Part shown: in pieces, positions 2,982 to 54,742 of the stretch
Position numbering within the stretch: the stretch's first letter is position 1
Layout: every line of letters starts with the position of its first letter
Virus record (IMG/VR): IMGVR_UViG_2846178487_000001
Location: 4,978 to 68,977 of that record
Origin: a virus
Lineage: Duplodnaviria; Caudoviricetes
Strand: one strand, 5' to 3'
Length of the DNA: 64,000 nt
The notes under the pieces: generated by a model
What the model was told of the DNA's origin: nothing
The model's input: only the letters and a program-made list of their open reading frames with translations
Databases searched by the model: none
Program-made: the position numbers and the translations under genes

Positions 2982-3296
2982 ATGGAATTAAAACACGTTA
3001 TCCCTAACATGGAAAGAACATTCGGGAATTTGGAATTTGCAGGTGAGAATAAGGTGGAACAGCGTAGGATCAACGGACGTATGACGGTCGTTTCCCGTAG
3101 CTTCAACCTTTATTCGGACGTGCAGAGAGCAGATGATATTATCGTGGTGCTGCCTGCTTCTGCTGGTGAGAAGAACTTTGAATCAGAGGAAAAAGTAAAA
3201 CTTATCAATCCAAAAATCACCGCAGAGGGTTACAAAATCGGTACAAGAGGATTCACAAACTATATCCTGTCAGCGGACGATATGGTGAAAGCATAA
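2982..3296 (+). CDS. Tn916 Orf23-like conjugation protein (YdcP family)
   Basis: MELKHVIPNMERTFGNLEFAG; YSDVQRADDIIVVLP; RBS gagg upstream of ATG 2982. Confidence 0.85.
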   Translation: MELKHVIPNMERTFGNLEFAGENKVEQRRINGRMTVVSRSFNLYSDVQRADDIIVVLPASAGEKNFESEEKVKLINPKITAEGYKIGTRGFTNYILSADDMVKA

Positions 3297-3311
3297 GGAG
3301 GAAAAATTTAT

Positions 3312-3698
3312 ATGAGATTAGCAAATGGAATCATTATTGATAAGGAAAAGACATTCGGAGTGTTGAAGTTCTCGGCGTTGCGTCGTGAGGTACATATCCA
3401 GAATGAGGACGGTACGGTTTCTGAAGAAATCAAGGAACGTACCTACGACTTGAAGTGTAAGGAACAGGGACGCATGATACAGGTAAGTATTCCCGCCACT
3501 GTTCCATTAAAGGAGTTTGACTACAACGCAGAGGTGGAAATCATCAACCCTGTGGCAGACACGGTGGCAACCGCTACATTTCAAGGTGCAGACGTGGACT
3601 GGTACATCAAGGCAGATGATATTGTTTTAAAGAATAAGAATGGTCAGCCAGCAGGAAATCCACAGCACCATAACCAGCAATCACAGAATAAAAAATAA
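3312..3698 (+). CDS. Tn916 Orf22-like conjugation protein (YdcP family)
   Basis: MRLANGIIIDKEKTFGVLKFSALRRE ... WYIKADDIVL. Confidence 0.88.
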   Translation: MRLANGIIIDKEKTFGVLKFSALRREVHIQNEDGTVSEEIKERTYDLKCKEQGRMIQVSIPATVPLKEFDYNAEVEIINPVADTVATATFQGADVDWYIKADDIVLKNKNGQPAGNPQHHNQQSQNKK

Positions 3699-4456: not shown

Positions 4457-5860
4457 ATGCCACAATTCAAAAAATGGGGAAAACATATCAGAGCCAGCGA
4501 CAAATCACTGGTTTTTCGTTTCTCGGCTGGTTCACTGCTCCTGCTGTTTCTTGCTATGATTATACTGTTGAACCTAAAGGCAATTGTAACAACGGACTGG
4601 GAATCGGTTAGCTTTCTACAAGATGGCAGTGTCCATTTTTCAGTTACGCCATATAGGATAGTTACGGTCATAGTGTCAGCTCTGGTCTGTGTGATTGCTG
4701 CCTTTTTGTATCAGCGTTTCCAGTATGACAGGGTGAAGCAGCTCTTCCACCGTCAAAAGCTAGCAAAGATGATACTTGAAAATGGCTGGTATGAATCGGA
4801 AACAACACAGGAAAGCGGATTCTTCAAGGATTTACCAGCGTCCAGTAAAAAAGAGAAAATCACCTATTTTCCTAAACTGTATTACCGTATGGATAACGGA
4901 CTATTGTATATCCGTACAGAAATCACGCTGGGAAAATATCAAGACCAGCTCTTACACTTGGAAAAGAAGCTGGAAACAGGCTTGTACTGTGAGTTGGTGT
5001 CAAAAGAATTAAAGGACAGCTATGTGGAGTATGTCTTACTTTATGACACTATCGCAAATAGAATCACTATCAATGAAGTACAGGCGGAACATGGCAGCCT
5101 GCGTCTGATGAAAAATGTCTGGTGGGAGTATGACAAGCTCCCCCATATGCTGATTTCTGGCGGCACTGGTGGAGGAAAGACCTATTTTATTCTCACTATC
5201 ATTGAAGCTCTGCTCCGCTGCAATGCGGTCATGTATGTGTTAGACCCGAAGAACGCCGACCTTGCGGATTTATCCGTCGTCATGCCAGAAGTCTATTACA
5301 AAAAGGAAGATATAACTGCCTGTATTGACAGATTTTATGACGGTATGATGGCAAGAAGTGAAGCTATGAAACTCATGGAGAACTACAAGACGGGTGAAAA
5401 CTATGCCTATCTTGGTCTTGCTCCGCATTTTCTCATTTTTGATGAATATGTGGCGTTTATGGAAATGCTGACGACAAAGGAAAACGCCGCTGTTTTAAAT
5501 AAGCTTAAACAAATAGTCATGCTCGGACGACAGGCAGGTTACTTTCTCATTCTCGCCTGTCAGCGACCAGACGCAAAATATCTCGGTGACGGAATCCGTG
5601 ACCAGTTTAACTTCCGTGTTGCATTGGGGCGTATGTCAGAGCTTGGCTATTCCATGATGTTTGGTGAGGTAGACAAGGACTTTTTTCTGAAACAGATCAA
5701 AGGACGTGGATATGTCGATACGGGAACGAGTGTCATATCCGAGTTTTACACTCCCCTTGTACCCAAAGGACACGATTTCCTAAAAGAAATAGGCAGATTG
5801 TCACAAAACAGGCAGGACGGACAGGCGGCGTGCGAAGCGAAAGCCGCAGGTACGGACTAG
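4457..5860 (+). CDS. FtsK/SpoIIIE-type coupling protein (Orf21/TcpA-like)
   Basis: Two N-terminal TM segments, Walker A GGTGGGKT, FDEYVAFM, LGRQAG, QRPDA. Confidence 0.93.
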   Translation: MPQFKKWGKHIRASDKSLVFRFSAGSLLLLFLAMIILLNLKAIVTTDWESVSFLQDGSVHFSVTPYRIVTVIVSALVCVIAAFLYQRFQYDRVKQLFHRQKLAKMILENGWYESETTQESGFFKDLPASSKKEKITYFPKLYYRMDNGLLYIRTEITLGKYQDQLLHLEKKLETGLYCELVSKELKDSYVEYVLLYDTIANRITINEVQAEHGSLRLMKNVWWEYDKLPHMLISGGTGGGKTYFILTIIEALLRCNAVMYVLDPKNADLADLSVVMPEVYYKKEDITACIDRFYDGMMARSEAMKLMENYKTGENYAYLGLAPHFLIFDEYVAFMEMLTTKENAAVLNKLKQIVMLGRQAGYFLILACQRPDAKYLGDGIRDQFNFRVALGRMSELGYSMMFGEVDKDFFLKQIKGRGYVDTGTSVISEFYTPLVPKGHDFLKEIGRLSQNRQDGQAACEAKAAGTD

Positions 5861-16009: not shown

Positions 16010-16057
16010 TTGACATATAAGTGATGTGTGTATATAATGTGCATGTATAAACATCAC
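16010..16057 (+). promoter_or_regulatory. sigma-A promoter overlapped by YtrA-type operator
   Basis: TTGACA(16010)-17-TATAAT(16033); inverted repeat gtgatgtgtgta-N13-tataaacatcac (16021-16057). Confidence 0.8.
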
Positions 16058-16076: not shown

Positions 16077-16454
16077 TTGAAGATAGTAATATCTAATACA
16101 TCTGAAAATCCTCTTTACCAGCAAATCAAAGACCAAATAAAAGACGCTATCTTAAGAGAGGAATTAGTGGAGGGCGACGCCCTTCCGTCTATCCGTTCCT
16201 TTGCAAATGATTTAAAAGTCAGCGTCCTAACAATACGGAGGGTATATGATGAATTGGAAAAAGAGGGATTTATTACAAGTCAAGTCGGTATCGGGACTTT
16301 TGTTTCTACAAGTAATATTGAATTATTAAGGGAGTCCAAACGGCGACTTGTAGAGAAAAAAATGCTTGATATGATACAGACAGCTAAATCACTAAATATC
16401 AGCAAAGAGGAATTAAATGCCATGATGGACATTCTATACGAGGAGGAAAACTGA
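16077..16454 (+). CDS. GntR-family (YtrA subfamily) repressor
   Basis: PLYQQIKDQIK, LPSIRSFANDLKVSVLTIRRVYDELEKEG, GIGTFV; TTG start. Confidence 0.92.
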   Translation: MKIVISNTSENPLYQQIKDQIKDAILREELVEGDALPSIRSFANDLKVSVLTIRRVYDELEKEGFITSQVGIGTFVSTSNIELLRESKRRLVEKKMLDMIQTAKSLNISKEELNAMMDILYEEEN

Positions 16455-17324
16455 ATGGACAATATTTTAGAAGTATCTGGAATCAATAAAAGTTACGATG
16501 ATTTTTCCTTGAAGGACATCTCATTCTATTTACCAGAGGGATGTATCACTGGATTTGTGGGAATTAACGGGGCAGGTAAGACAACCACTATACGAAGTAT
16601 TTTAGGGCTTACCAACAATGTATCGGGGAAAATAAATTTTTTTGGTATGGACATAAAGGGAAATGAAAGCGAAATAAAAGACCGTATCGGTATTGTGCTT
16701 GATGATGGTTGTTTTTATGATGAATTAACCATTTCAGAAATGAAAAGCATCATAGCACCTGCCTATAAAAACTGGTGTGAACAAGATTTTATTGATTACT
16801 TAGAACGTTTCGAGCTTAACCCAAAGCAAAAAATCAATACACTGTCGAAAGGTATGCGTATGAAATATGCTTTGGCATTAGCTCTTTCACATAAAGCGGA
16901 GCTACTTATTATGGACGAACCGACAAGCGGACTTGACCCACTGGTACGAAGCCAGCTTTTGGATATATTAAAAGATTATATGAACAAAGATGGAAAAGGT
17001 GTATTTTTTTCTACGCATATTACCTCTGATTTAGACAAAATTGCAGATATGCTGATTATGATTGATAGTGGGCAGATTGTTTTTCAAGAAGAAAAAGACC
17101 AGTTGCTTGACAGCTATCGAATTATAAAAGGAAGTGCAGAGAAACTGAATTCAGATACACGAAAGATGTTTCTTTGCACAGAAGAAAGTGCATTTAATTT
17201 TACGGGAATTACAAAACAGGCTTCTGTTGTTATGGAATGTATGCAGGATGTTCTTATAGAACGACCAACGATTGAAGACATTATGCTTGCGAATGTGGAA
17301 AGGAGAAAAAAGAATGTTATTTAG
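16455..17324 (+). CDS. ABC transporter ATP-binding protein
   Basis: GINGAGKTT, LSKGM, IMDEPTSGLDP, STH. Confidence 0.95.
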   Translation: MDNILEVSGINKSYDDFSLKDISFYLPEGCITGFVGINGAGKTTTIRSILGLTNNVSGKINFFGMDIKGNESEIKDRIGIVLDDGCFYDELTISEMKSIIAPAYKNWCEQDFIDYLERFELNPKQKINTLSKGMRMKYALALALSHKAELLIMDEPTSGLDPLVRSQLLDILKDYMNKDGKGVFFSTHITSDLDKIADMLIMIDSGQIVFQEEKDQLLDSYRIIKGSAEKLNSDTRKMFLCTEESAFNFTGITKQASVVMECMQDVLIERPTIEDIMLANVERRKKNVI

Positions 17325-17955
17325 CTTAGTAAAAAAAGATTTTCTAATTGTAAAGAAATATGTGGGTATTATGCTTATTGTATCCTTTTTAATTCCGCCT
17401 ATTATGCTTTGGCGTACACCTGAAGCGGCTGGAGCTATGGGTTTCACACTTACTATTATTTTCAGTATTTTCATGTTGACACAATATGTTTCCTTAAAGG
17501 AACATCAATATCCGAACGCAGCTACTCTGCTTTGTGCAACGCCATATCCCCGTAGGCTGATTGTACTTTCAAAATATTTATTTTGTCTGGTTATTTATGT
17601 GGTATGCTGTTTGATTTTTGGAATTGACACACTTATTTTTCCGAAACTGGGAACGTTTGATATTAGGATGGCGGTTATCATTTTTTTTACGGTCACTGTA
17701 TTTTTATCTGTTTATTTTCCTGCTTTATATAAACTGGGATATGAAAAAACAAAATTTGTCTTTGTCTTAGTTATTATGGCATCCCCTATTTTGTTTGCAG
17801 CTCTGTTTAAACCAGAAAATAAGATAAAGTTTGATTTCTTAAATACGGTTTCCACAACAATGCTCATTATTTTTGGTATTGTAATTAGTCTTATCATTTT
17901 TTCAATATCCGCTATTCTGTCAATTAAGTTTTTTGAAAAGAGCGATTTGGCATAG
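17314..17955 (+). CDS. ABC-2-type permease
   Basis: Six hydrophobic segments; LVKKDF start; overlaps ATPase stop. Confidence 0.88.
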   Translation: MLFSLVKKDFLIVKKYVGIMLIVSFLIPPIMLWRTPEAAGAMGFTLTIIFSIFMLTQYVSLKEHQYPNAATLLCATPYPRRLIVLSKYLFCLVIYVVCCLIFGIDTLIFPKLGTFDIRMAVIIFFTVTVFLSVYFPALYKLGYEKTKFVFVLVIMASPILFAALFKPENKIKFDFLNTVSTTMLIIFGIVISLIIFSISAILSIKFFEKSDLA

Positions 17956-17965
17956 GAGGTATCGT

Positions 17966-18352
17966 ATGGAACATGATGTAATTATTTTGTATTTGATAGC
18001 AGGAGTATCGGTTACTTTCGTCTTGTTTAATTGTATTTTGTTTGCCTTGAAACATGGAAAGACAATGAAAACAGATGGAATAATTGTTTCAATAAAGTCT
18101 ACAAACCCGACAAACGAAAAATGGCGTAATGCAAAACTGGCAGAGGTTTCCTATCTGGTAACTGGCAAGCGGATTGTGTCAAAAAATCGCATACAGGTTT
18201 CTCTTGCCTCCGAGATAGGAACGCATATTCCTATCCGATATGACCGAAACCAGCCAGACAAAATATACAGTTATTCAGTAAAACGAATTATTATAGGATT
18301 TTTAATTGGTGTAGGTAGCATACTTATAGCTGTGTTTATGCAAATTCATTAG
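17966..18352 (+). CDS. DUF3592-like membrane protein
   Basis: TM - beta-rich domain (IGTHIPIRYDRNQP) - TM. Confidence 0.65.
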   Translation: MEHDVIILYLIAGVSVTFVLFNCILFALKHGKTMKTDGIIVSIKSTNPTNEKWRNAKLAEVSYLVTGKRIVSKNRIQVSLASEIGTHIPIRYDRNQPDKIYSYSVKRIIIGFLIGVGSILIAVFMQIH

Positions 18353-18370
18353 AGAAAGGGGATATAGGAT

Positions 18371-18463
18371 ATGCCACATTTTCCAGAATGGTTTATAGTC
18401 ATTTGTGTGTTGTTCCCTATTGCCAACTTGATTTATAAGGCATGGAAAAACAGAAAGAAATAG
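18371..18463 (+). CDS. 30-aa hydrophobic peptide (not in ORF track)
   Basis: MPHFPEWFIVICVLFPIANLIYKAWKNRKK; gaaagggg upstream; fills gap in operon. Confidence 0.5.
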   Translation: MPHFPEWFIVICVLFPIANLIYKAWKNRKK

Positions 18464-18476
18464 CAAAGTGGAGGTA

Positions 18477-18668
18477 ATGATGAAAAAAACGGAATGGATA
18501 CGCTGCCCTGTTTGTGGCAACAAAACCCGTGACAGAATTAGAGAAGATACGGTTTTAAAAAATTACCCGCTCTATTGTCCGAAATGTAAACAGGAAGCCT
18601 TAATAGAAGCCAAAAATCTACAAATAATAGTAATCAAAGAGCCAGACGCACAGACGCAGAGCCGATAA
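18477..18668 (+). CDS. Cysteine-rich KTR zinc-ribbon protein (Tn916 Orf6-like position)
   Basis: WIRCPVCGNKTR...PLYCPKCKQE...EPDAQTQSR. Confidence 0.9.
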   Translation: MMKKTEWIRCPVCGNKTRDRIREDTVLKNYPLYCPKCKQEALIEAKNLQIIVIKEPDAQTQSR

Positions 18669-18710
18669 CACCGAGAATAGTTTTATCTTGGGTTATCGGC
18701 TTATTTTATT
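18660..18710 (+). terminator. Intrinsic terminator whose 5' arm starts in a GAGCC repeat
   Basis: agccgataac(18660-69)/gttatcggct(18692-701) perfect stem, inner ccgaga/tcttgg stem, then tattttatt. Confidence 0.8.
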
Positions 18711-18731
18711 GGAAAGCTAAAAAGCAGAGGG

Positions 18732-19085
18732 TTACTCCTCCACTTCCTTAGACTTGATGATTCCGTCAACAACGCTTTCCATGATAACTAAATCTTTGTC
18801 GGACAGATTATCAAGCTGCTTTTCTAACTGTATTCTTCTGGTGCTTTTCACCAGATCAGAAGCAGGCAAGAAAAAAGCGTCTGTTGATACATTCAATAAA
18901 TGAACAAGGTCATAAAATACTTGTAAACTTGGGTGCTGCCCTTTGTTTTCAATATTCGTCAAATAGCGTGGGTCAATCTCAATCATTGCTCCCACTTGTT
19001 CACGGGTAAGACCTTGTTTCATGCGAGCTTCTTTGATTGCAAGACCAAAGGCTCTAAAATCATACTTATCTTCTTTTTTACGCAT
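18732..19085 (-). CDS. XRE-family repressor (Orf9-like)
   Basis: [29 protein letters not shown]. Confidence 0.9.
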
Positions 19086-19653
19086 ATGTAATCACCTCAT
19101 TACATTTTACTGTTCCTGTTGATTTTCTAACAGGTATAGAAAAACGCATAGTATGGTTTGTAAGTTCCTATCTGCGTAAAAGGAACATTAAAAAAGTGCT
19201 GCATTGCGGTAAATAAAAAAAACCGCTATTGTCAGTAGCATTTTTGCATGTTAAAAATTTTCTTTGTTTAGATGGCGGTTGACAAGCCGCCTTTTTTTCA
19301 TCCCCGAAAAACAGTATATAGGTTTGGGGTTAGCGGCTTTAGGAGGTAGCCGCATTGAGAAACCTACATAATCGACAATCTTTGATATATCCGATATTGT
19401 CAAAAAAATCTTAGCCTTTAAAGCGGTACAATATACCCTTAAATATGGTTTTTCACATTACATAGCAGGAACAACTATAAAAGCACAAGAACAGCATTCA
19501 TTTTATGCTCTTGTGCTTTTTTGCTGCTTAAAAAAATTTTTTGACTTTTTTCTGATTTGGGTTACAAATCGCCCCTCCGTGTTGAGTGTTAGTGCGGAAA
19601 GAGGTAAAAAGCCTTTTCGCTTTAGCAACGTCAACTTGAAAGGAGGTGAGATT

Positions 19654-20076
19654 ATGAAACCTTCTTCATTTGAGAACGCTATAAGACTTCAATTTGACTG
19701 TCTGGCTCGTAAGGTGATTGGCAGAACTGTAAAGAACTACAACAAAGAACTTGCCAGACGTGCAAAGCATGAAATATCTTTCTGTGAAATACCAGAGCTG
19801 GAATTAAACCAGTTGGGTGTATCGGACGAATACCCGATTGAATTTACTTCCTTTGATGTGTTCGGTACAGAAGTTCGTGTCTATGATGAGAAATTATGTG
19901 AAGCAATCAAAAAATTAAGCGAAAGACGACGTAATGTTATGTTGATGTTCTACTTTCTGGAATTACCAGACGCAGAAATCGCAGAGATTTTGGATATTTC
20001 CAGAAACTCTGTTTATAGAAACAGAATGTGTTCACTAAAGCTCATTAGAGATATGTACGAGGAGGAATTATTATAA
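19654..20076 (+). CDS. Sigma-70 region 4-type activator (Orf7-like)
   Basis: MKPSSFENAIRLQFD, LELPDAEIAEILDISRNSVYRNR; RBS aggagg. Confidence 0.88.
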   Translation: MKPSSFENAIRLQFDCLARKVIGRTVKNYNKELARRAKHEISFCEIPELELNQLGVSDEYPIEFTSFDVFGTEVRVYDEKLCEAIKKLSERRRNVMLMFYFLELPDAEIAEILDISRNSVYRNRMCSLKLIRDMYEEELL

Positions 20077-20077
20077 C

Positions 20078-20317
20078 ATGATGAAGTCTACAAAAAAGTG
20101 TCCTCTATTCTCCACAATCAGTTTAGCTACTGATGGTGACGAAGTGGCAATAGAGAAAATATTAAATCACTATGACGCTTATATATCAAAAGCAAGTTTA
20201 CGCCCGTTCTATGATGAACACGGAAATATGTATATTGTGGTCGATATGGAACTGAAAGGCAGAATCAGAGCTGCTCTTATTAAAGCAATTCTAGGTTTTG
20301 AAGTCAGAGTGAAATAA
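20078..20317 (+). CDS. Orf8-like HTH protein
   Basis: GDEVAIEKILNHYDAYISKAS. Confidence 0.85.
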   Translation: MMKSTKKCPLFSTISLATDGDEVAIEKILNHYDAYISKASLRPFYDEHGNMYIVVDMELKGRIRAALIKAILGFEVRVK

Positions 20318-20923: not shown

Positions 20924-22492
20924 ATGATAGAATCAAAATCAAGAGTTGCTATTTATTGCCGCTTATCAGAGGAAGATAGAAACAAACAATCAGAAACAGA
21001 CGACAGTAACAGTATTCAAAATCAAAAGTCAATGTTACTTCAATACTCATTAGAGCATGGTTGGGAAGTCTACAACATATACAGTGATGATGATTACACT
21101 GGTTCTGACAGACGACGACCAGAATTTAACAGGTTGTTGGAGGACGCAAAGAATCGCAAATTTGATATTGTCCTTTGTAAGACACAATCCAGATTTACCA
21201 GAGAACTAGAATTAGTGGAAAAATATATCCACGGTCTTTTTCCTATTTGGGGTATTCGCTTCATCAGTATTGTTGATAATGCAGATACAGCTAATAAGGG
21301 AAATAAGAAATCAAGACAGATTAACGGTCTGGTGAATGAGTGGTACTTGGAGGATATGTCAGAGAACATTAAAAGTGTTCTCACTGACAGAAGAAAGAAC
21401 GGACACCATATCGGTGCTTTTGCCCTGTATGGTTACAAAAAAGACCCTGACGTAAAAGGGCATTTGATTATTGATGAAGAAGCTGCGGAAGTTGTCAGAG
21501 AAGTTTTTACACTGTTTTCACAGGGATATGGAAAGACCGCCATTGCCCGTATGCTGAATGACAGAGGAATACCAAACCCTACGGAATACAAACGACTTCA
21601 TGGCTTGCGTTACAAGCAGCCTAAAACGAAAAACAGTACCCTATGGAAATATTTTGCCATATCAGATATGTTGGTGAATGAAATCTATATCGGGAATATG
21701 GTTCAAGGGAAATATGGCAGCGTTTCTTATAAGACAAAGCAAAACAAACCCAGACCAAAAGACGAGTGGTACAGAGTTGAGGGTACACATGAACCGATTA
21801 TTGACCGTGAGTTATGGGATAGGGTTCAAGCATTGGTAGCTCAAAAGGCAAAACCTTTCACGGTTGGCACAATCGGCTTATTTGCCAGAAAAGCTCGCTG
21901 TATGAATTGTGGTTATACAATGCGTTCATCAAAGAATCGTGGTAAGCATTATTTACAATGTTCTAACCGCCATGTAGCAAAGGACGCTTGTATAGGTTCT
22001 TTCATTTCAGTAGACAAATTGGAAAAAGCTGTGATTGACGAACTTAATAAGTTATCCGCAGAATATCTGGATAAAGATGAGCTTGAACAAAATGTGCAAT
22101 TCAATAATGACTTGCGAGGTCAAAAAGAAGCTCTGGAAACGGAGATTGCTGCTTATCAAAAAAAGATTGCGGAATACACAAAAGGAATCCGTGAACTATA
22201 TTTAGATAAGGTAAAGGGTATTCTTTCCGAACTTGATTACTTGGATTTATCTAAAGACTTCTCAACACAAAAAGAAAGGCTCGAAAAACTGGTAATTGAT
22301 ACGCAGAAACAGCTTGATGTTATTGAAAGAAAAATGCTGATTGGCGATAACAGACGACAGTTAATCGAGCAATATACAAATCTTGAACACTTAGACAGGG
22401 AAACGGTTGAAAAGCTGATTGATTATGTATTGGTCGGTAAGAAAGACCCTGTAACTAAGGAAGTACCTATTGAAATACATTGGAATTTCTAA
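20924..22492 (+). CDS. Large serine recombinase of the ICE
   Basis: AIYCRLS catalytic motif, SRFTR, recombinase domain, CMNCG...C zinc ribbon, coiled coil. Confidence 0.96.
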   Translation: MIESKSRVAIYCRLSEEDRNKQSETDDSNSIQNQKSMLLQYSLEHGWEVYNIYSDDDYTGSDRRRPEFNRLLEDAKNRKFDIVLCKTQSRFTRELELVEKYIHGLFPIWGIRFISIVDNADTANKGNKKSRQINGLVNEWYLEDMSENIKSVLTDRRKNGHHIGAFALYGYKKDPDVKGHLIIDEEAAEVVREVFTLFSQGYGKTAIARMLNDRGIPNPTEYKRLHGLRYKQPKTKNSTLWKYFAISDMLVNEIYIGNMVQGKYGSVSYKTKQNKPRPKDEWYRVEGTHEPIIDRELWDRVQALVAQKAKPFTVGTIGLFARKARCMNCGYTMRSSKNRGKHYLQCSNRHVAKDACIGSFISVDKLEKAVIDELNKLSAEYLDKDELEQNVQFNNDLRGQKEALETEIAAYQKKIAEYTKGIRELYLDKVKGILSELDYLDLSKDFSTQKERLEKLVIDTQKQLDVIERKMLIGDNRRQLIEQYTNLEHLDRETVEKLIDYVLVGKKDPVTKEVPIEIHWNF

Positions 22493-24505: not shown

Positions 24506-24578
24506 TGAACAATCAGATATAGTATATCTTCGGATATGCGAGCCACCCTGAGCCAACGGGGTGGCGATTTCTTTTTTT
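24506..24578 (+). ncRNA. Candidate ~70-nt antisense sRNA
   Basis: Promoter above plus terminator gccaccct/ggggtggc and T7 tract on + strand; no ORF. Confidence 0.5.
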
Positions 24579-25053
24579 ATTCAGCTTTTGTCAATTTTAC
24601 TTTCGTAGTTGTACCGGCCATAGAGACTTGATAGGAAAGTTCTTTATCTGCATCAGAGTATGAGAAGTCTTTTGTATCATCAGTTGATGCAAGCATAGCA
24701 TTATCAGTCTGCTCTTTATTTCTATCAGATGTCCAAGTGTAGTCAGCTGAGTACTCTGTTGGAGCGGTATAGGTTCCTACCCAGTAGATAGAAGTCGTGT
24801 CACCGTTATCAGATACCCAATTGACAGTAATTGTATCGTCGGCAATAACAGCCTCCATCCAGGAACCGTCATTATCTTCTGATTTCCATGTCCCAGCTAA
24901 ATCAACAGGTGCTTTTTCCTCTTCTTTTTTTGTTTCCTGTGTAGTTTCGTTTTGTTTGGAATCAGATTTATCAGATGAACTTCCGCCTCCACATGCAGAC
25001 AATGACAGCGCCATTGTTCCGGCAATTAATAATGCTACAATTCTTTTCTTCAT
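24577..25053 (-). CDS. Prophage lipoprotein (superinfection-exclusion position)
   Basis: MKKR + hydrophobic stretch + lipobox LSAC, Ser/Lys linker, beta-rich domain. Confidence 0.8.
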   Translation of the reverse strand: MKKRIVALLIAGTMALSLSACGGGSSSDKSDSKQNETTQETKKEEEKAPVDLAGTWKSEDNDGSWMEAVIADDTITVNWVSDNGDTTSIYWVGTYTAPTEYSADYTWTSDRNKEQTDNAMLASTDDTKDFSYSDADKELSYQVSMAGTTTKVKLTKAE

Positions 25054-50834: not shown

Positions 50835-50849
50835 GTGAGCCGATGAGCC
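50835..50849 (+). promoter_or_regulatory. Tandem-GAGCC motif overlapping chaperone start codon
   Basis: GTGAGCCGATGAGCC, ATG at 50843, immediately after RBS aggag. Confidence 0.65.
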
Positions 50850-51268
50850 TTTTTAAATACGGAAATCTCGAAGTTGAGATGGATTTTACAGATGTTGATT
50901 TTTTAGAAAATCTGGACGAAGCAAAGAAATTAATGGCTGATGAAGCAGCACAAGTACCGAAAACCGGAAAGACAGCGGATATTATTCGCGCGCAGTGTCA
51001 GTGTTATTTTAACTTTTTCGACCGGGTGATCGGAGAGGGAGCACACGAGGAGATGTTCCAGGGTAGAACCAGCCTTAATTCATGTCTCGATGCCACAGAT
51101 GCACTTCTTAAGTTCGAAAATGATGAGGCGCTTAAACTGAATGAGAAATATAGTGATTATATGGTTCAGCAGCATGGGAACAGGCAGCAGAACCGTAATT
51201 ACAATAAACAGCATGGAAAGAAGCACAATAAAGGAAATGTTAGTTATTATCCTAATGGTAATAGGTAG
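50843..51268 (+). CDS. Tail assembly chaperone 1
   Basis: Position after tube gene; FFDRVIGEG; basic low-complexity tail. Confidence 0.75.
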   Translation: MSLFKYGNLEVEMDFTDVDFLENLDEAKKLMADEAAQVPKTGKTADIIRAQCQCYFNFFDRVIGEGAHEEMFQGRTSLNSCLDATDALLKFENDEALKLNEKYSDYMVQQHGNRQQNRNYNKQHGKKHNKGNVSYYPNGNR

Positions 51269-51274
51269 CATGCT

Positions 51275-51838
51275 ATGAACATTCTGATTGATAAGTTCCC
51301 CGATACGGTATGCGTAAACGGGAAAGACTATGAGGTCGAGACAGATTTCCGGGAATGGATACGATTCACGAAGTTGGTGGAAGACGAGGACGTTCCGTGG
51401 CAAATTAAGTGCCGGCTATTATTGCAGTGGTATATAGATGAAATTCCGGACGATTTGGAAGAGGCAATTGAGGCTCTGGGAGATTTTCTTGCAATGAGGC
51501 AGGATGGCGAAGAATCCGATGAGCCAATGCTCCCACCAAAACAAGTGTATTCTTTTGACGAGGATATGGTTTGGATTTACAGTGCATTTCGCGAAGCGTA
51601 CGGAATCGACCTGCAGTCTGTTCCGTATATGCATTGGTGGGAGTTTCAAACGCTGTTCATCGGACTCCCAGACAATACAGAAATCAAACAGCGCATTTTG
51701 TATCGGAACACAGACCTCCGGGATATTAAAGATAAGGACGAGCGCAAGAGAGTGAAAAAGATTCAAGAGGCAGTCGCTCTCAAGAAAAAGAAGCGCAGGA
51801 AAATGACAGATTATGAGATTGGAGATATGTTCGCGTGA
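51275..51838 (+). CDS. Tail assembly chaperone 2 (A118 Gp15-like)
   Basis: ETDFREWIRF, YSFDED...IYSAF...YGIDL, MHWWEFQTLF. Confidence 0.85.
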   Translation: MNILIDKFPDTVCVNGKDYEVETDFREWIRFTKLVEDEDVPWQIKCRLLLQWYIDEIPDDLEEAIEALGDFLAMRQDGEESDEPMLPPKQVYSFDEDMVWIYSAFREAYGIDLQSVPYMHWWEFQTLFIGLPDNTEIKQRILYRNTDLRDIKDKDERKRVKKIQEAVALKKKKRRKMTDYEIGDMFA

Positions 51839-51990
51839 TGAAACATATGATTAAGATCCCGACAGAACGAAAATGGTACAGATGTCCTTATTGTGGTAAG
51901 AAGTTATTGATTTACGAGGATACAGCCAAATGTAGTGGAGTGTATCTAAACTGTCGGGAATGTAAAAGAGAAATAAATATTAAGATTTAA
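51838..51990 (+). CDS. 50-aa Com-like/KTR-like zinc-ribbon protein (not in ORF track)
   Basis: MKHMIKIPTERKWYRCPYCGKKLLIYEDTAKCSGVYLNCRECKREINIKI; TGATG coupling to gp15-like gene. Confidence 0.8.
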   Translation: MKHMIKIPTERKWYRCPYCGKKLLIYEDTAKCSGVYLNCRECKREINIKI

Positions 51991-51998
51991 AAGCACAT

Positions 51999-52041
51999 GT
52001 GAGCCGTTGAGCCGTGCTATCAGAAAGGATGATAGTATGGC
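51999..52041 (+). promoter_or_regulatory. Tandem-GAGCC motif plus hairpin sequestering tape-measure SD/AUG
   Basis: GTGAGCCGTTGAGCC (51999-52013); stem gccgtgctatca/tgatagtATGgc (52011-22/52030-41, two G-U pairs), loop gaaagga. Confidence 0.75.
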
Positions 52042-54742
52042 AGACGGATATTTGAATTTTGATACCAAGATAAATGAAAAAGGTTTTAATGAGGGCGTTA
52101 GCAAACTAAGCGCTCTCGGAAAAAGCGGACTATCCATAGTGTCTAAGGCAATGACTGGAGCTGTGGCAGCTGTAGGAACCGCTGCCGGCGTAATCATTAA
52201 GTCTTCACTTGGTGTTGTTGCGAATATGGAGCAACAGGTAGGCGGTGTCGAAACACTGTTCAAGGATAGTGCGGACACCGTAATCAAGAATGCTAACCGT
52301 GCATATAAAACAGCGCAGATATCTGCAAATGATTACATGTCTACAGTCACGAGCTTTTCTGCATCCTTGCTGCAGGGACTTGGTGGGGATACGGCTAAAG
52401 CAGCAGAGATTGCAGATATGGCGCTCATCGATATGGCGGATAATGCCAATAAGATGGGTACCAACATGCAAGATATCCAGAACGCCTATCAAGGCTTCGC
52501 TAAGCAGAATTATACGATGCTCGACAACCTAAAGCTAGGTTATGGCGGTACTCAATCGGAAATGATTCGATTGATTAATGATTCTGGAATCCTCAACGAG
52601 AAGATAAGTGATCTGGACAATGTCACATTTGACCAGATGATCCAGGCAATTCATGTAATTCAGCAGAATCTTGGAATTACAGGCACGTCAGCAGAAGAGG
52701 CTGGAGAAACTATTGAAGGATCTGTTAATTCTGCTAAGGCAGCATGGGAGAATTTCCAAGGCGGAGTAATAACAAGTCAGGAGCTTGTAGAAACATTTGG
52801 AACAGCAACTCAGAATATTCTCAAGAATCTTGGTGAGATAGTCCCAAGATTGGGAAAAACCGGACTTGAAGTCGTTGGGGCAATTGCTGATAAAATTGGC
52901 GATTCCGTTCCAGCGGCGAAAGGTTTTGCTGATGCAGTTGAAAACATTACTGATAAGCTCGGCAGTATGGATACCGGACAACTTGCAAACCTCGGTAAGA
53001 TGTCCGCAGTTCTGATTGGTGCAGTTCCTGCTTTTTCGCTGATTGGCAAGAGTGCCGGAACATTTTCTGATGTCCTCGGCGGATTAGGGGAGGTTAGCGG
53101 TGGAGTTACCGCTAAGTTTCAGAAGATTCCGGGAGGAATCAAGAGTCTTGGGACAAGTATGCAATCCGGGGCGAAGGTATTTCATAACATTAAGGATGCC
53201 ATACTACTTCCGTTTGAAGATTTGTCTCCAAGTCTAACTAAGATATTTGGAAAAGTAAGTAGCTCCGTTAGTTCTGGCCCCCTTGGTAAGCTTGTAAATG
53301 ATTTCTCAGAAATTCCAAAAGGAATTGCAGCTTCATTTGGAAAAATCGGACCTGCTATTTCCAGAAAATTTCCAAAGATAACAGGCGTTGTTAAATCCAT
53401 TGGAAGTAGTATATTCGGAACGTTTACGACCATAGCGAATGGGGCAAAGGGATTTGGTTCATTGCTAGGAGGGGCACTTAATTCGGTATTACCAAAGATA
53501 TCCGGATTTGCAAATAAATTCATAGGCTATCTTGGAGTAGCAGGAGATGCATTTGCACCAGTCTTATCAAAAGCAGCAAGTTTTGTTCCTCAGTTATTGG
53601 GATTTATGAATATAGCAGCGGTAGTTGCTCTTGTAGCCGTGGGGCTTGGCTTATTATACAGCCAGTTCGGTACACAGATAGACCAGATCCTGCTTATGAT
53701 GCAGACTAAGGGACCGGAGGTTATTACCAATTTCTGTAATGGAATTGTAGCAGCATTACCGAATTTGATTGCGCAAGGCGCTACGATGCTGAATAACCTC
53801 ATGCTTGCGATTACAGCAAACCTACCGGCAATTATTCAAGGTGGTATTGCAATTGTATCTACTCTGATTACAGGCATTGCGCAGCAATTACCTACATTGA
53901 TTCCAACAGCGCTCATGATGATTTTGACGTTGGTCAGTTCCTTACTATCTAACGTTGGACAATTGGTAGACGCAGGCATTAACCTATTGGTTGGACTGGC
54001 TCAGGGAGTTGTGAATGCACTTCCACAGCTAATTAATAAGGCACCGACGATTATCGGGCAGTTAGCAACGGCAATTATTTCCAATCTGCCGAAAATTTTG
54101 CTTGCTGGAATCAAAATTATAACGATTCTGGGAACCGGACTTATACAGGCAGTGCCACAGCTTATTAGTAAGATTCCATCGATTATCAGCCAAGTAAAGA
54201 ACGCATTTACAACAAGTGTTGATTGGGGCAGCGTCGGAATGAACATCATTAAAGGAATTGCGAACGGGCTCAAGGGTGCCGCAGGAGCAATTGTAGAAGC
54301 TGCCAAAGGTGCAGCGGAAAGCGCACTGAATGCGGCCAAGAATGCATTGGGTATTCATTCCCCGTCACGTGTATTCCGTGATCAGGTTGGAAAGATGATG
54401 GCTCTTGGAATGGGAATAGGTTTTGAAAAGAACATCCCGATTAACATGATGCAAGCAGGATTGAAAAATGTAGTATCGTCATTGCAGGCGAGATCTGTTG
54501 CGGTTCAATCTGCTGCATATGCAGGAGCTGGAACTGGATATGCGGGAAGCAATACGGAAACGCAGAATGTCTGCCAAATGTTGTCAAAAGTGGCAGCCTT
54601 ATTAGAAAAGTATACTGACAGACCAGTCGAGGCTAACCTGTATCTAGACAAGAGAGTTGCAGCGAAGGCATTGGCGAAACCAATCAAAGAAGAAAACGAT
54701 AAGATGCAGAGAGAAAATAGCAGAAAGGCGGGAATAAGATGA
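52037..54742 (+). CDS. Tape measure protein
   Basis: MADGYLNFDTKI, EQQVGGVETLF, TMLDNLKLGYGG, Ala/Ile-rich repeats, GIHSPSRVF. Confidence 0.93.
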   Translation: MADGYLNFDTKINEKGFNEGVSKLSALGKSGLSIVSKAMTGAVAAVGTAAGVIIKSSLGVVANMEQQVGGVETLFKDSADTVIKNANRAYKTAQISANDYMSTVTSFSASLLQGLGGDTAKAAEIADMALIDMADNANKMGTNMQDIQNAYQGFAKQNYTMLDNLKLGYGGTQSEMIRLINDSGILNEKISDLDNVTFDQMIQAIHVIQQNLGITGTSAEEAGETIEGSVNSAKAAWENFQGGVITSQELVETFGTATQNILKNLGEIVPRLGKTGLEVVGAIADKIGDSVPAAKGFADAVENITDKLGSMDTGQLANLGKMSAVLIGAVPAFSLIGKSAGTFSDVLGGLGEVSGGVTAKFQKIPGGIKSLGTSMQSGAKVFHNIKDAILLPFEDLSPSLTKIFGKVSSSVSSGPLGKLVNDFSEIPKGIAASFGKIGPAISRKFPKITGVVKSIGSSIFGTFTTIANGAKGFGSLLGGALNSVLPKISGFANKFIGYLGVAGDAFAPVLSKAASFVPQLLGFMNIAAVVALVAVGLGLLYSQFGTQIDQILLMMQTKGPEVITNFCNGIVAALPNLIAQGATMLNNLMLAITANLPAIIQGGIAIVSTLITGIAQQLPTLIPTALMMILTLVSSLLSNVGQLVDAGINLLVGLAQGVVNALPQLINKAPTIIGQLATAIISNLPKILLAGIKIITILGTGLIQAVPQLISKIPSIISQVKNAFTTSVDWGSVGMNIIKGIANGLKGAAGAIVEAAKGAAESALNAAKNALGIHSPSRVFRDQVGKMMALGMGIGFEKNIPINMMQAGLKNVVSSLQARSVAVQSAAYAGAGTGYAGSNTETQNVCQMLSKVAALLEKYTDRPVEANLYLDKRVAAKALAKPIKEENDKMQRENSRKAGIR

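Follow-up and report, generated by a model that had tools for sequence, protein, structure and literature searches.

A conserved cis-acting element on the terminator at the 3' end of the Cys-rich KTR (orf6) gene of Tn916-type elements

The KTR gene carries a cis-acting nucleic-acid element at its 3' end

The window analyzed here is a stretch of 64,000 nucleotides (nt) from the IMG/VR provirus record IMGVR_UViG_2846178487_000001 (positions 4,978 to 68,977), a record with both a segment of an integrative and conjugative element (ICE) and a prophage. In the ICE segment, a cargo operon is followed on the same strand by a small gene for a Cys-rich KTR protein, and the 3' end of this gene contains a 28-nt element that runs into the hairpin of a transcription terminator (Table 1). 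The open reading frame (ORF) covers the whole profile of the Pfam family PF14205 Cys_rich_KTR with 113.1 bits (cut-off, 25.5; E of 5e-33). In L085, which is a fragment of Tn916 with tet(M), the annotation places a cysteine-rich KTR protein after the leader peptide and tet(M) and before the orf9-type regulator, and KTR is therefore orf6 of Tn916. The protein has two CxxC pairs with the K-T-R triplet after the first (CPVC...KTR...CPKC), all of them invariant columns in alignments of the homologues, as well as a net basic core and a disordered tail; its AlphaFold2 model (mean predicted local distance difference test score of 83) has five strands, with residues 54 to 62 at low confidence. The family is large, with 3820 protein clusters at 90% identity and 2574 representative clusters.

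The element, GAGCCAGACGCANAGACGCAGAGCCGAT, consists of GAGCC, AGACGCA, a single C, AGACGCA, GAGCC, and GAT in that order and occurs once in the window. An earlier reading of the window, made from its letters only (the sequence-only reading), had noted two GAGCC copies at the end of the KTR gene and suggested that the last codons are kept for their RNA sequence rather than for their amino acids. The copies are where it had placed them (18639 to 18643 and 18659 to 18663), and synonymous variation is indeed suppressed around them. We compared 80 genome loci with KTR homologues, plus loci from plasmids and viral contigs (individual loci are cited by L numbers), and for the analysis of conservation kept 56 genes with <93% identity to one another in the body. 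Among these diverged homologues the 28 nt are nearly invariant, whatever their frame or coding status. Pairwise identity at third positions is 0.52 for codons 1 to 47 versus 0.91 for the K-E-P-D-A codons, with GAG used in 56/56 genes, CCA in 52/56, and GAC in 54/56; in the body, by contrast, invariant Cys, Pro, Thr, and Leu residues are encoded freely by any of their synonymous codons. The next stretch, AGACGCAGAGCCGAT, has a pairwise identity of 0.96 and occurs in three coding states: it is read as EPDAxTQSR-stop (QTQSR and close variants) in 33 of the 56 genes, it is untranslated in 16, where TAG or TAA comes straight after EPDA, and a 1-nt insertion puts it into another frame, with a tail of the type EPD(A/T)LDAEPMNV-stop, in 6. 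The gene in L075, which has an extra repeat unit, also finishes in the LDAEPMNV-type frame. In L166, where KTR has only 42% identity and ends earlier, the exact element stands after the stop codon, and at other loci it is found past a whole cargo gene. Tn916 orf6 likewise has the element, as do tet(O) and tet(S) fragments, and the repeats within it vary in copy number, with one AGACGCA unit in L026 and three GAGCC copies in L075. Since the same nucleotides are kept across differing frames and coding status, it is the nucleic acid that is conserved and not the peptide, with which the confident zinc-ribbon core and low-confidence tail of the model agree. The 3' end of KTR/orf6 thus carries a cis-acting nucleic-acid element, which we consider solid and new; our search of the literature found no description of it and no function for orf6/KTR.

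The second GAGCC forms the base of a hairpin with a free energy of -26.4 kcal/mol (z = -3.65), and only 1 of 200 shuffled sequences folds as well. The perfect 10-bp stem first noticed there (18660 to 18669 with 18692 to 18701) is real and is lengthened to 17 pairs by RNAfold, and the KTR stop codon, TAA (18666 to 18668), lies inside the 5' arm. A simple terminator scanner missed the hairpin because its loop is >8 nt, but in 46 aligned homologues a stable G+C-containing hairpin and, on the transcribed strand, a U tract directly behind it are conserved. In these homologues T makes up 5.5 of the 8 bases that follow the stem, compared with 27% in the gene background; the lower stem, AGAGCCGAU(G/A), is kept, and the upper stem varies with compensatory changes. 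Substitutions in the 3' arm are of the types C>T and A>G. Only in plus-strand RNA do these preserve pairing, as G-U, and the hairpin therefore works as plus-strand RNA. This wobble pattern, the covarying upper stem, and the T-rich sequence downstream support the view that the hairpin is a terminator, as had been proposed. The two arms are unequally conserved, with a mean entropy of 0.12 bits in the 5' arm versus 0.43 bits in the 3' arm; the 5' arm and the tract before it are therefore under a second, sequence-specific constraint, and this extra constraint fits recognition in an unpaired form. Until the 3' arm has been transcribed, the 28-nt tract of the nascent RNA is predicted to be free of structure.

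Two other explanations of the tract were considered and rejected. Complements for long-range pairing exist (GTCTGGCTC at 19700 and GCGTCTGT at 18877) but were not found to be a conserved feature, and a minus-strand promoter of the extracytoplasmic-function type, with CGTCT as the -10, would by inspection have its -35 in the variable upper stem. The region was found in four mouse-gut metatranscriptome runs of one study, as assembled contigs only, and these break at the 31- to 33-nt element because several elements share it. In a number of loci, homology breaks off just after the 5' arm or in the loop (L004, L006, L053, the second copy in L011, L013, L018, and L058), and in two of them, L006 and L053, the break is where an unrelated segment begins that bears an inverted repeat of its own. 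The hairpin thus seems to be especially prone to insertions or rearrangements.

Table 1. Coordinates of the features of the window discussed in the text
Feature	Position	Strand	Remarks
Sigma-70-like promoter ahead of cargo operon	16010..16038	+	12/12 consensus positions; consensus match only
Cargo operon	16077..18352	+	All genes co-directional with KTR
GntR regulator	16077-16454	+	Cargo operon
ATP-binding cassette (ABC) transporter ATPase	16455-17324	+	Cargo operon
ABC-2 permease	17272-17955	+	Cargo operon; twin in L003 is ABC2_membrane_5
DUF3592-like membrane protein	17933-18352	+	Cargo operon
KTR gene (Tn916 orf6 homologue)	18477..18668	+	C4 zinc ribbon, 62-63 amino acids, Pfam PF14205
Conserved 28-nt element	18639..18666	+	From homologue comparison
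Terminator hairpin, 17-bp stem with one bulged A	18659..18702	+	RNAfold; second GAGCC and stop codon in 5' arm
U-rich tract of terminator	18703..18712	+	UAUUUUAUU, directly after stem
Tn916 orf9-like helix-turn-helix (HTH) regulator	18732..19085	-	HTH_3 and DBD_HTH; convergent with KTR
Rfam SQ2397 (RF03532) leader before orf7	19073..19312	+	157 bits, gathering score 100
orf7-like (Sigma70_r4) and orf8-like (HTH_16) genes	19651..20317	+	Equivalents of Tn916 sig7/sig8; Pfam
Third phage GAGCC pair (24540, 24550) in terminator	24540-24580	+	9-bp G+C-rich stem, -20 kcal/mol, T-rich tract (GATTTCTTTTTTT)
Second phage site	50836-50849	+	GTGAGCCGATGAGCC; near-identical to first; overlaps start codon of tail-region gene 50843-51268
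Phage zinc-ribbon gene	51838-51990	+	Between Gp15-family tail gene and tape-measure gene
Phage site	51999-52013	+	GUGAGCCGUUGAGCC, after zinc-ribbon gene
Phage hairpin, 12 bp	52011-52042	+	-19.5 kcal/mol, z = -4.1

The element closes the cargo operon

The regulatory module in the window has the order of Tn916, with cargo, orf6, orf9 on the opposite strand, a leader, orf7, and orf8. The orf9-like product is 74% identical to Tn916 Orf9 in L085, and the SQ2397 leader, which is also present in that fragment (230 bits), covers the stretch between orf9 and orf7 including a second terminator, GGCGG...CCGCC-T7, at 19274 to 19291. The orf7- and orf8-like genes are the presumed beneficiaries of any read-through. 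The recombinase is of the serine type (20924 to 22492), unlike Int/Xis of Tn916. An unlisted ORF of 30 codons, MPHFPEWFIVICVLFPIANLIYKAWKNRKK (18372 to 18464, plus strand), lies between the last cargo gene and KTR and looks like a small membrane peptide. Like the KTR element, SQ2397 is a structured RNA that belongs to this regulatory module, in which it lies 370 nt further downstream, but the two are distinct in sequence and structure, and no Rfam family was found over the element even at E of 10 (18300 to 19700 searched at E ≤ 10 and 20 related loci at the gathering score), with SQ2397, the pemK RNA motif, and other matches lying elsewhere.

Across the loci compared, KTR nearly always has a co-directional gene upstream of it, whose function varies greatly (hydrolases, ABC transporters, acetyltransferases, and resistance genes), while downstream of the unit there are either same-strand sigma70-region-4 genes of the orf7/sig7 type or opposite-strand orf9-like HTH genes. 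The unit of KTR gene and element therefore marks the boundary between cargo and regulatory module, and the element closes the cargo operon, standing between the cargo and the ICE regulatory genes orf9, orf7/sig7, and orf8/sig8. It is adjacent to the gene in 113 KTR genes. Where KTR has no element at its own end, the element is found one cargo gene further on, at the operon terminator: in L156, L175, L183, and L188, a gene for an RlmN/Cfr-family methyltransferase stands between KTR and the element, which is then followed by the sigma gene, and in L077 a 166-amino-acid ORF takes this place.

Several loci (L072, L074, L011, L013, L032, L055, and L063) have two or three KTR genes within 6 kb (in L074, at 28 to 216, 3004 to 3201, and 5009 to 5218), each closing its own cargo block with its own element and hairpin, in the likeness of a cassette array. 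The Rfam pemK RNA motif occurs about 1.3 to 1.9 kb downstream of KTR in L009, L011, L043, and L051, and in L011, the single locus inspected, a PemK/MazF-like toxin gene follows about 200 nt past the motif in the same regulatory region. KTR and the element also accompany tet(O) on the pTet plasmids of Campylobacter and tet(M)/tet(S) on plasmids from Neisseria, E. coli, Salmonella, Enterococcus, and Lactococcus; these plasmid matches (475 records) are remnants outside any ICE.

Relation to Mu Com and to the zinc ribbon of the prophage

The closest characterized zinc-ribbon RNA binder is Com of phage Mu. In a profile comparison with hhalign, KTR matched Com with 68% probability (E of 4.9e-5) over 32 columns with the zinc ribbon in register, and it also weakly matched a PHROG annotated as a translational regulator (E of 7e-4). 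The nearest non-KTR clusters in a protein atlas are named Com, although the score of 0.91 is a lead only. Neither a sequence search of solved structures nor Foldseek gave a significant or informative match to KTR, with LysW, L33, and Trm112-type zinc ribbons at E > 0.5 and generic zinc ribbons only from Foldseek. The Pfam family PF10122 Zn_ribbon_Com, which Mu Com itself matches with 36.8 bits, has no match to the zinc ribbon of the prophage at E ≤ 0.1. In vitro selection with Com yielded two copies of GAG(N)2CC, and Com binds CC(N)2-3GAG in a loop beside the hairpin that conceals the start of mom; a motif within a duplex is bound weakly, and binding remodels the neighboring hairpin (PMC6483171). 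Both Com and KTR are C4 zinc ribbons of about 62 amino acids with a disordered tail, both have their target (a putative one for KTR) at the 3' end of their own gene, immediately 5' of a hairpin, and just as the Com motif is built from GAG and CC, there are GAG..CC motifs by the KTR hairpin. There are differences as well. KTR is a separate Pfam family, its host is an ICE of Bacillota rather than a Mu-like phage, its hairpin is a transcription terminator whereas that of Com hides a start codon, and its tract is longer, at 28 nt, with the GAGCC copies 20 nt apart and with AGACGCA repeats.

The phage zinc-ribbon gene of the window is much closer to the com/mom layout than the ICE gene is. The sequence-only reading had aligned the two proteins, and the alignment holds, albeit weakly (BLASTP, 43% identity over 40 amino acids, pairwise E of 2e-6); the Pfam KTR profile gives the phage protein an E of 0.006, below the cut-off, and the two have the same best PHROG match, phrog_5602. 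All 13 clusters found as relatives of the phage protein are close ones, and a search of representatives from KTR had only canonical KTRs among the best 150 listed. The phage hairpin has the GCC of the second GAGCC at its base, the Shine-Dalgarno sequence of the tape-measure gene in the loop, and its AUG in the 3' arm, and it hides both. The two sites were claimed to have a matching layout, and they are alike in having GAGCC at the hairpin base but not identical, with the copies 20 nt apart in the ICE and 8 nt apart in the phage and with different flanks. A covariance model that we built from the ICE element found the element itself in the window and left the phage sites unmatched, and the two layouts are therefore not one RNA family. 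Its weak match in the sig7-like gene (19960 to 20021), which encodes LPDAEIAE and occurs only in this ICE, was treated as coincidence.

The phage site is itself under strong constraint. In 39 distinct phage variants, the 25-nt form GCACAUGUGAGCCGUUGAGCCGUGC has an identity of 0.996 versus 0.69 at third codon positions of the adjacent gene, and it contains CC-GUU-GAG, the form bound by Com, in agreement with the published CC(N)3GAG. The near-identical GUGAGCCGAUGAGCC overlaps the start codon of the gene at 50843, and of 66 related phage loci, 55 have both translation-start sites, which are of the form GAGCC-N3-GAGCC; at least two targets are thus possible for the phage protein. The GAGCC pair in a phage terminator lies between the genes for the phage serine integrase and a lipoprotein, both on the minus strand, and six viral contigs contain its 26-nt core unchanged, two of them together with the zinc-ribbon gene. 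As a single word, GAGCC is no more frequent in the window than expected by chance (76 found, 75.7 expected), but close same-strand pairs (≤20 nt apart) are enriched (4 found versus 0.67 expected; P of about 0.013), and in 3 of these 4 pairs GAGCC supplies the base of a strong hairpin. The enrichment and the placement together support GAGCC as a candidate recognition unit of the KTR/phage zinc-ribbon group.

Gating of read-through as a possible role

Activation of Tn916 starts from Ptet read-through, and Sig7-8 then activates its own synthesis and is lethal when overproduced (PMC5812530 for read-through; bioRxiv 10.64898/2026.10.01.756105 for both). That read-through from the cargo governs activation was a premise of the sequence-only reading, and it agrees with the published model (PMC5812530; bioRxiv 10.64898/2026.10.01.756105); the unit sits between the cargo and orf9/orf7-orf8. 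We consider it quite possible, though short of probable, that KTR binds this RNA and opens the terminator, thereby gating cargo read-through into the activation genes, a role that fits both the anatomy of the locus and the read-through model. KTR would be a Com-like zinc-ribbon RNA-binding protein with the 28-nt tract as its cognate site. The nascent tract would leave RNA polymerase some 30 to 40 nt ahead of the synthesis of the 3' arm and be bound by KTR made from earlier transcripts of the same operon, and binding would hold the second GAGCC and the rest of the 5' arm single stranded so that the terminator fails to form. Read-through would then scale with the strength and duration of cargo-operon expression, and it would yield antisense orf9 RNA and the first sig7/sig8 transcripts, tripping the auto-activating switch, while without KTR the terminator would insulate the toxic activation module from cargo transcription. 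Orf6 is unmentioned in two preprints from the Grossman laboratory, and the predicted terminators mapped in the one from 2024 are confined to the region from the left end to the conjugation genes.

Devices of this general kind are well known. In the LicT/SacY-RAT, HutP, PyrR, and TRAP systems, whether transcription stops or reads through is determined by an RNA-binding protein that recognizes a sequence overlapping with the 5' arm of an intrinsic terminator; these proteins have other folds (CAT/PRD, HutP, PyrR, and TRAP rings), sense metabolites or phosphorylation, and act in 5' leaders. The candidate KTR site likewise overlaps the 5' arm of an intrinsic terminator, but KTR is a bare zinc ribbon encoded in its own candidate target transcript, and the site lies at the 3' end of an operon with no ligand implied. 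Within the same element family as the KTR unit, Tn916 canT, like ConAn1/conAn2 of pLS20, has terminators that insulate harmful genes and a device of the element that overrides them (bioRxiv 10.1101/2024.09.05.611371). However, canT lies between orf8 and xis, whereas the KTR element is found before orf9, in association with a protein gene and with no sign of processivity.

Several observations weigh against this role for KTR. KTR has no match to PF10122 at E ≤ 0.01, and the ICE tract does not fit the CC(N)2-3GAG spacing of Com. The GAGCC pair is present and conserved, but the conserved element is 28 nt long and not just two GAGCC copies, which speaks against the role in its simplest version, and a GAGCC code leaves the conserved AGACGCA repeats unexplained. 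Several related elements have further terminators between the KTR terminator and the sigma gene; in L011 there are at least three more terminator-like hairpins with T tracts (3183 to 3555) in the gap of about 470 nt before the sigma-like gene, and with a single terminator opened, transcripts would reach that gene only if the effect were processive. L161 alone has the element without a KTR gene in the 2 kb upstream, and some Tn916-like elements (CTn1, Tn5386, and TT31) are without orf6 (PMC7288454). The one link that points to KTR as the candidate binder is the association of gene and site in the genomes. Control of the terminator through translation was also considered and rejected, since the stop codon falls before the hairpin, in the lower arm, or in the upper arm depending on the homologue, and translation coupling is not in the design.

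Binding of the tract by KTR could also have an outcome other than antitermination, namely protection of the 3' end of the operon mRNA, feedback on the translation of KTR or cargo, or stronger termination that insulates sig7/sig8. The gene-site linkage and the likeness to Com (PMC6483171) speak for this as much as for opening of the terminator, and the multiple downstream terminators of many elements, like the lethality of overproduced Sig7-8 (bioRxiv 10.64898/2026.10.01.756105), suggest that insulation has priority. We nevertheless find it rather unlikely. The second GAGCC and the invariant 5' arm overlap the stem, and because proteins of the Com type bind duplex RNA weakly (PMC6483171), binding would be expected to compete with hairpin formation and not to assist it; the 3' end, moreover, already has the protection of a strong hairpin. 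It is quite improbable, in our view, that the tract is read, as DNA or RNA, by a factor other than KTR (of the Orf9, Sig7/8, or Orf8 type, or from the host) and that the KTR gene merely overlaps the site. The downstream regulators vary between loci (sigma type, orf9 type, AraC, and MerR) while the element and KTR are constant, KTR is in the same operon at all informative loci but one, and the 8-nt repeat period would be unusual for HTH dimers. Such a reader would, on the other hand, account for the persistence of the element without an adjacent KTR gene in L161 and the RlmN/Cfr-family loci and for the AGACGCA direct repeats, which the Com motif does not cover; orf6 travels as a unit with the 3' part of orf9 (PMC7288454), and the asymmetry of the arms is equally compatible with a double-stranded DNA site ending at the 5' arm.

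It could also be that nothing acts in trans and that the element is simply a good terminator, with uniform flanks that hitch-hike as a recombination seam for the exchange of cargo modules. The arrays of two or three cargo-KTR-element units within 6 kb (L072, L074, L011, L055, and L063), the breakpoints in the loop or directly behind the 5' arm (L004, L006/L053, L013, L018, and L058), and the repeat copy-number variants in L026 and L075 are what such a seam would be expected to leave, and in the gut metatranscriptome assemblies a 31-mer is a node common to several elements. Recombinational homogenization would not, however, end sharply at 28 nt, and the upper stem, loop, and U tract vary while single positions are invariant across Bacilli, Clostridia, and Campylobacter plasmids. 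A patch of 28 nt is also short for RecA-dependent exchange, as is well established, and we regard this explanation as a doubtful one, with little chance of being correct.

Opening of the terminator by KTR could be part of a wider pattern. A bolder proposal, which we think unlikely as it stands, is that KTR/orf6 and the phage zinc ribbons of phrog_5602 belong together in a single widespread class of Com-like RNA-binding proteins that recognize GAGCC and open hairpins, with the terminator gated in ICEs and translation starts and a terminator gated in phages. Because the code would be shared, a phage and an ICE residing in the same cell could switch each other's hairpins.

In conclusion, the novelty proposed here is a Com-type zinc-ribbon regulator with its RNA site placed on a terminator, and its function is a well-founded hypothesis on a long-open point of Tn916 biology. 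Elements of the Tn916 family are major carriers of tetracycline and other resistance genes, and we found no description in the literature of a device that sets the leak past the end of their cargo operon. To our knowledge, no function has been found for orf6 in 30 years; an RNA element that is fused to it and nearly invariant regardless of frame gives the family a concrete and testable role and offers a handle on the frequency of ICE activation in the form of one small protein and a 45-nt RNA (AAAGAGCC...GAGCCGAUAAC, the equivalent of 18636 to 18680). If GAGCC is indeed what these proteins read, the mechanism of Com would extend from one phage gene to thousands of mobile elements, and if the ICE and phage proteins do form one class, KTR would be the missing device that turns cargo- or antibiotic-induced transcription into transfer of the Tn916 family.

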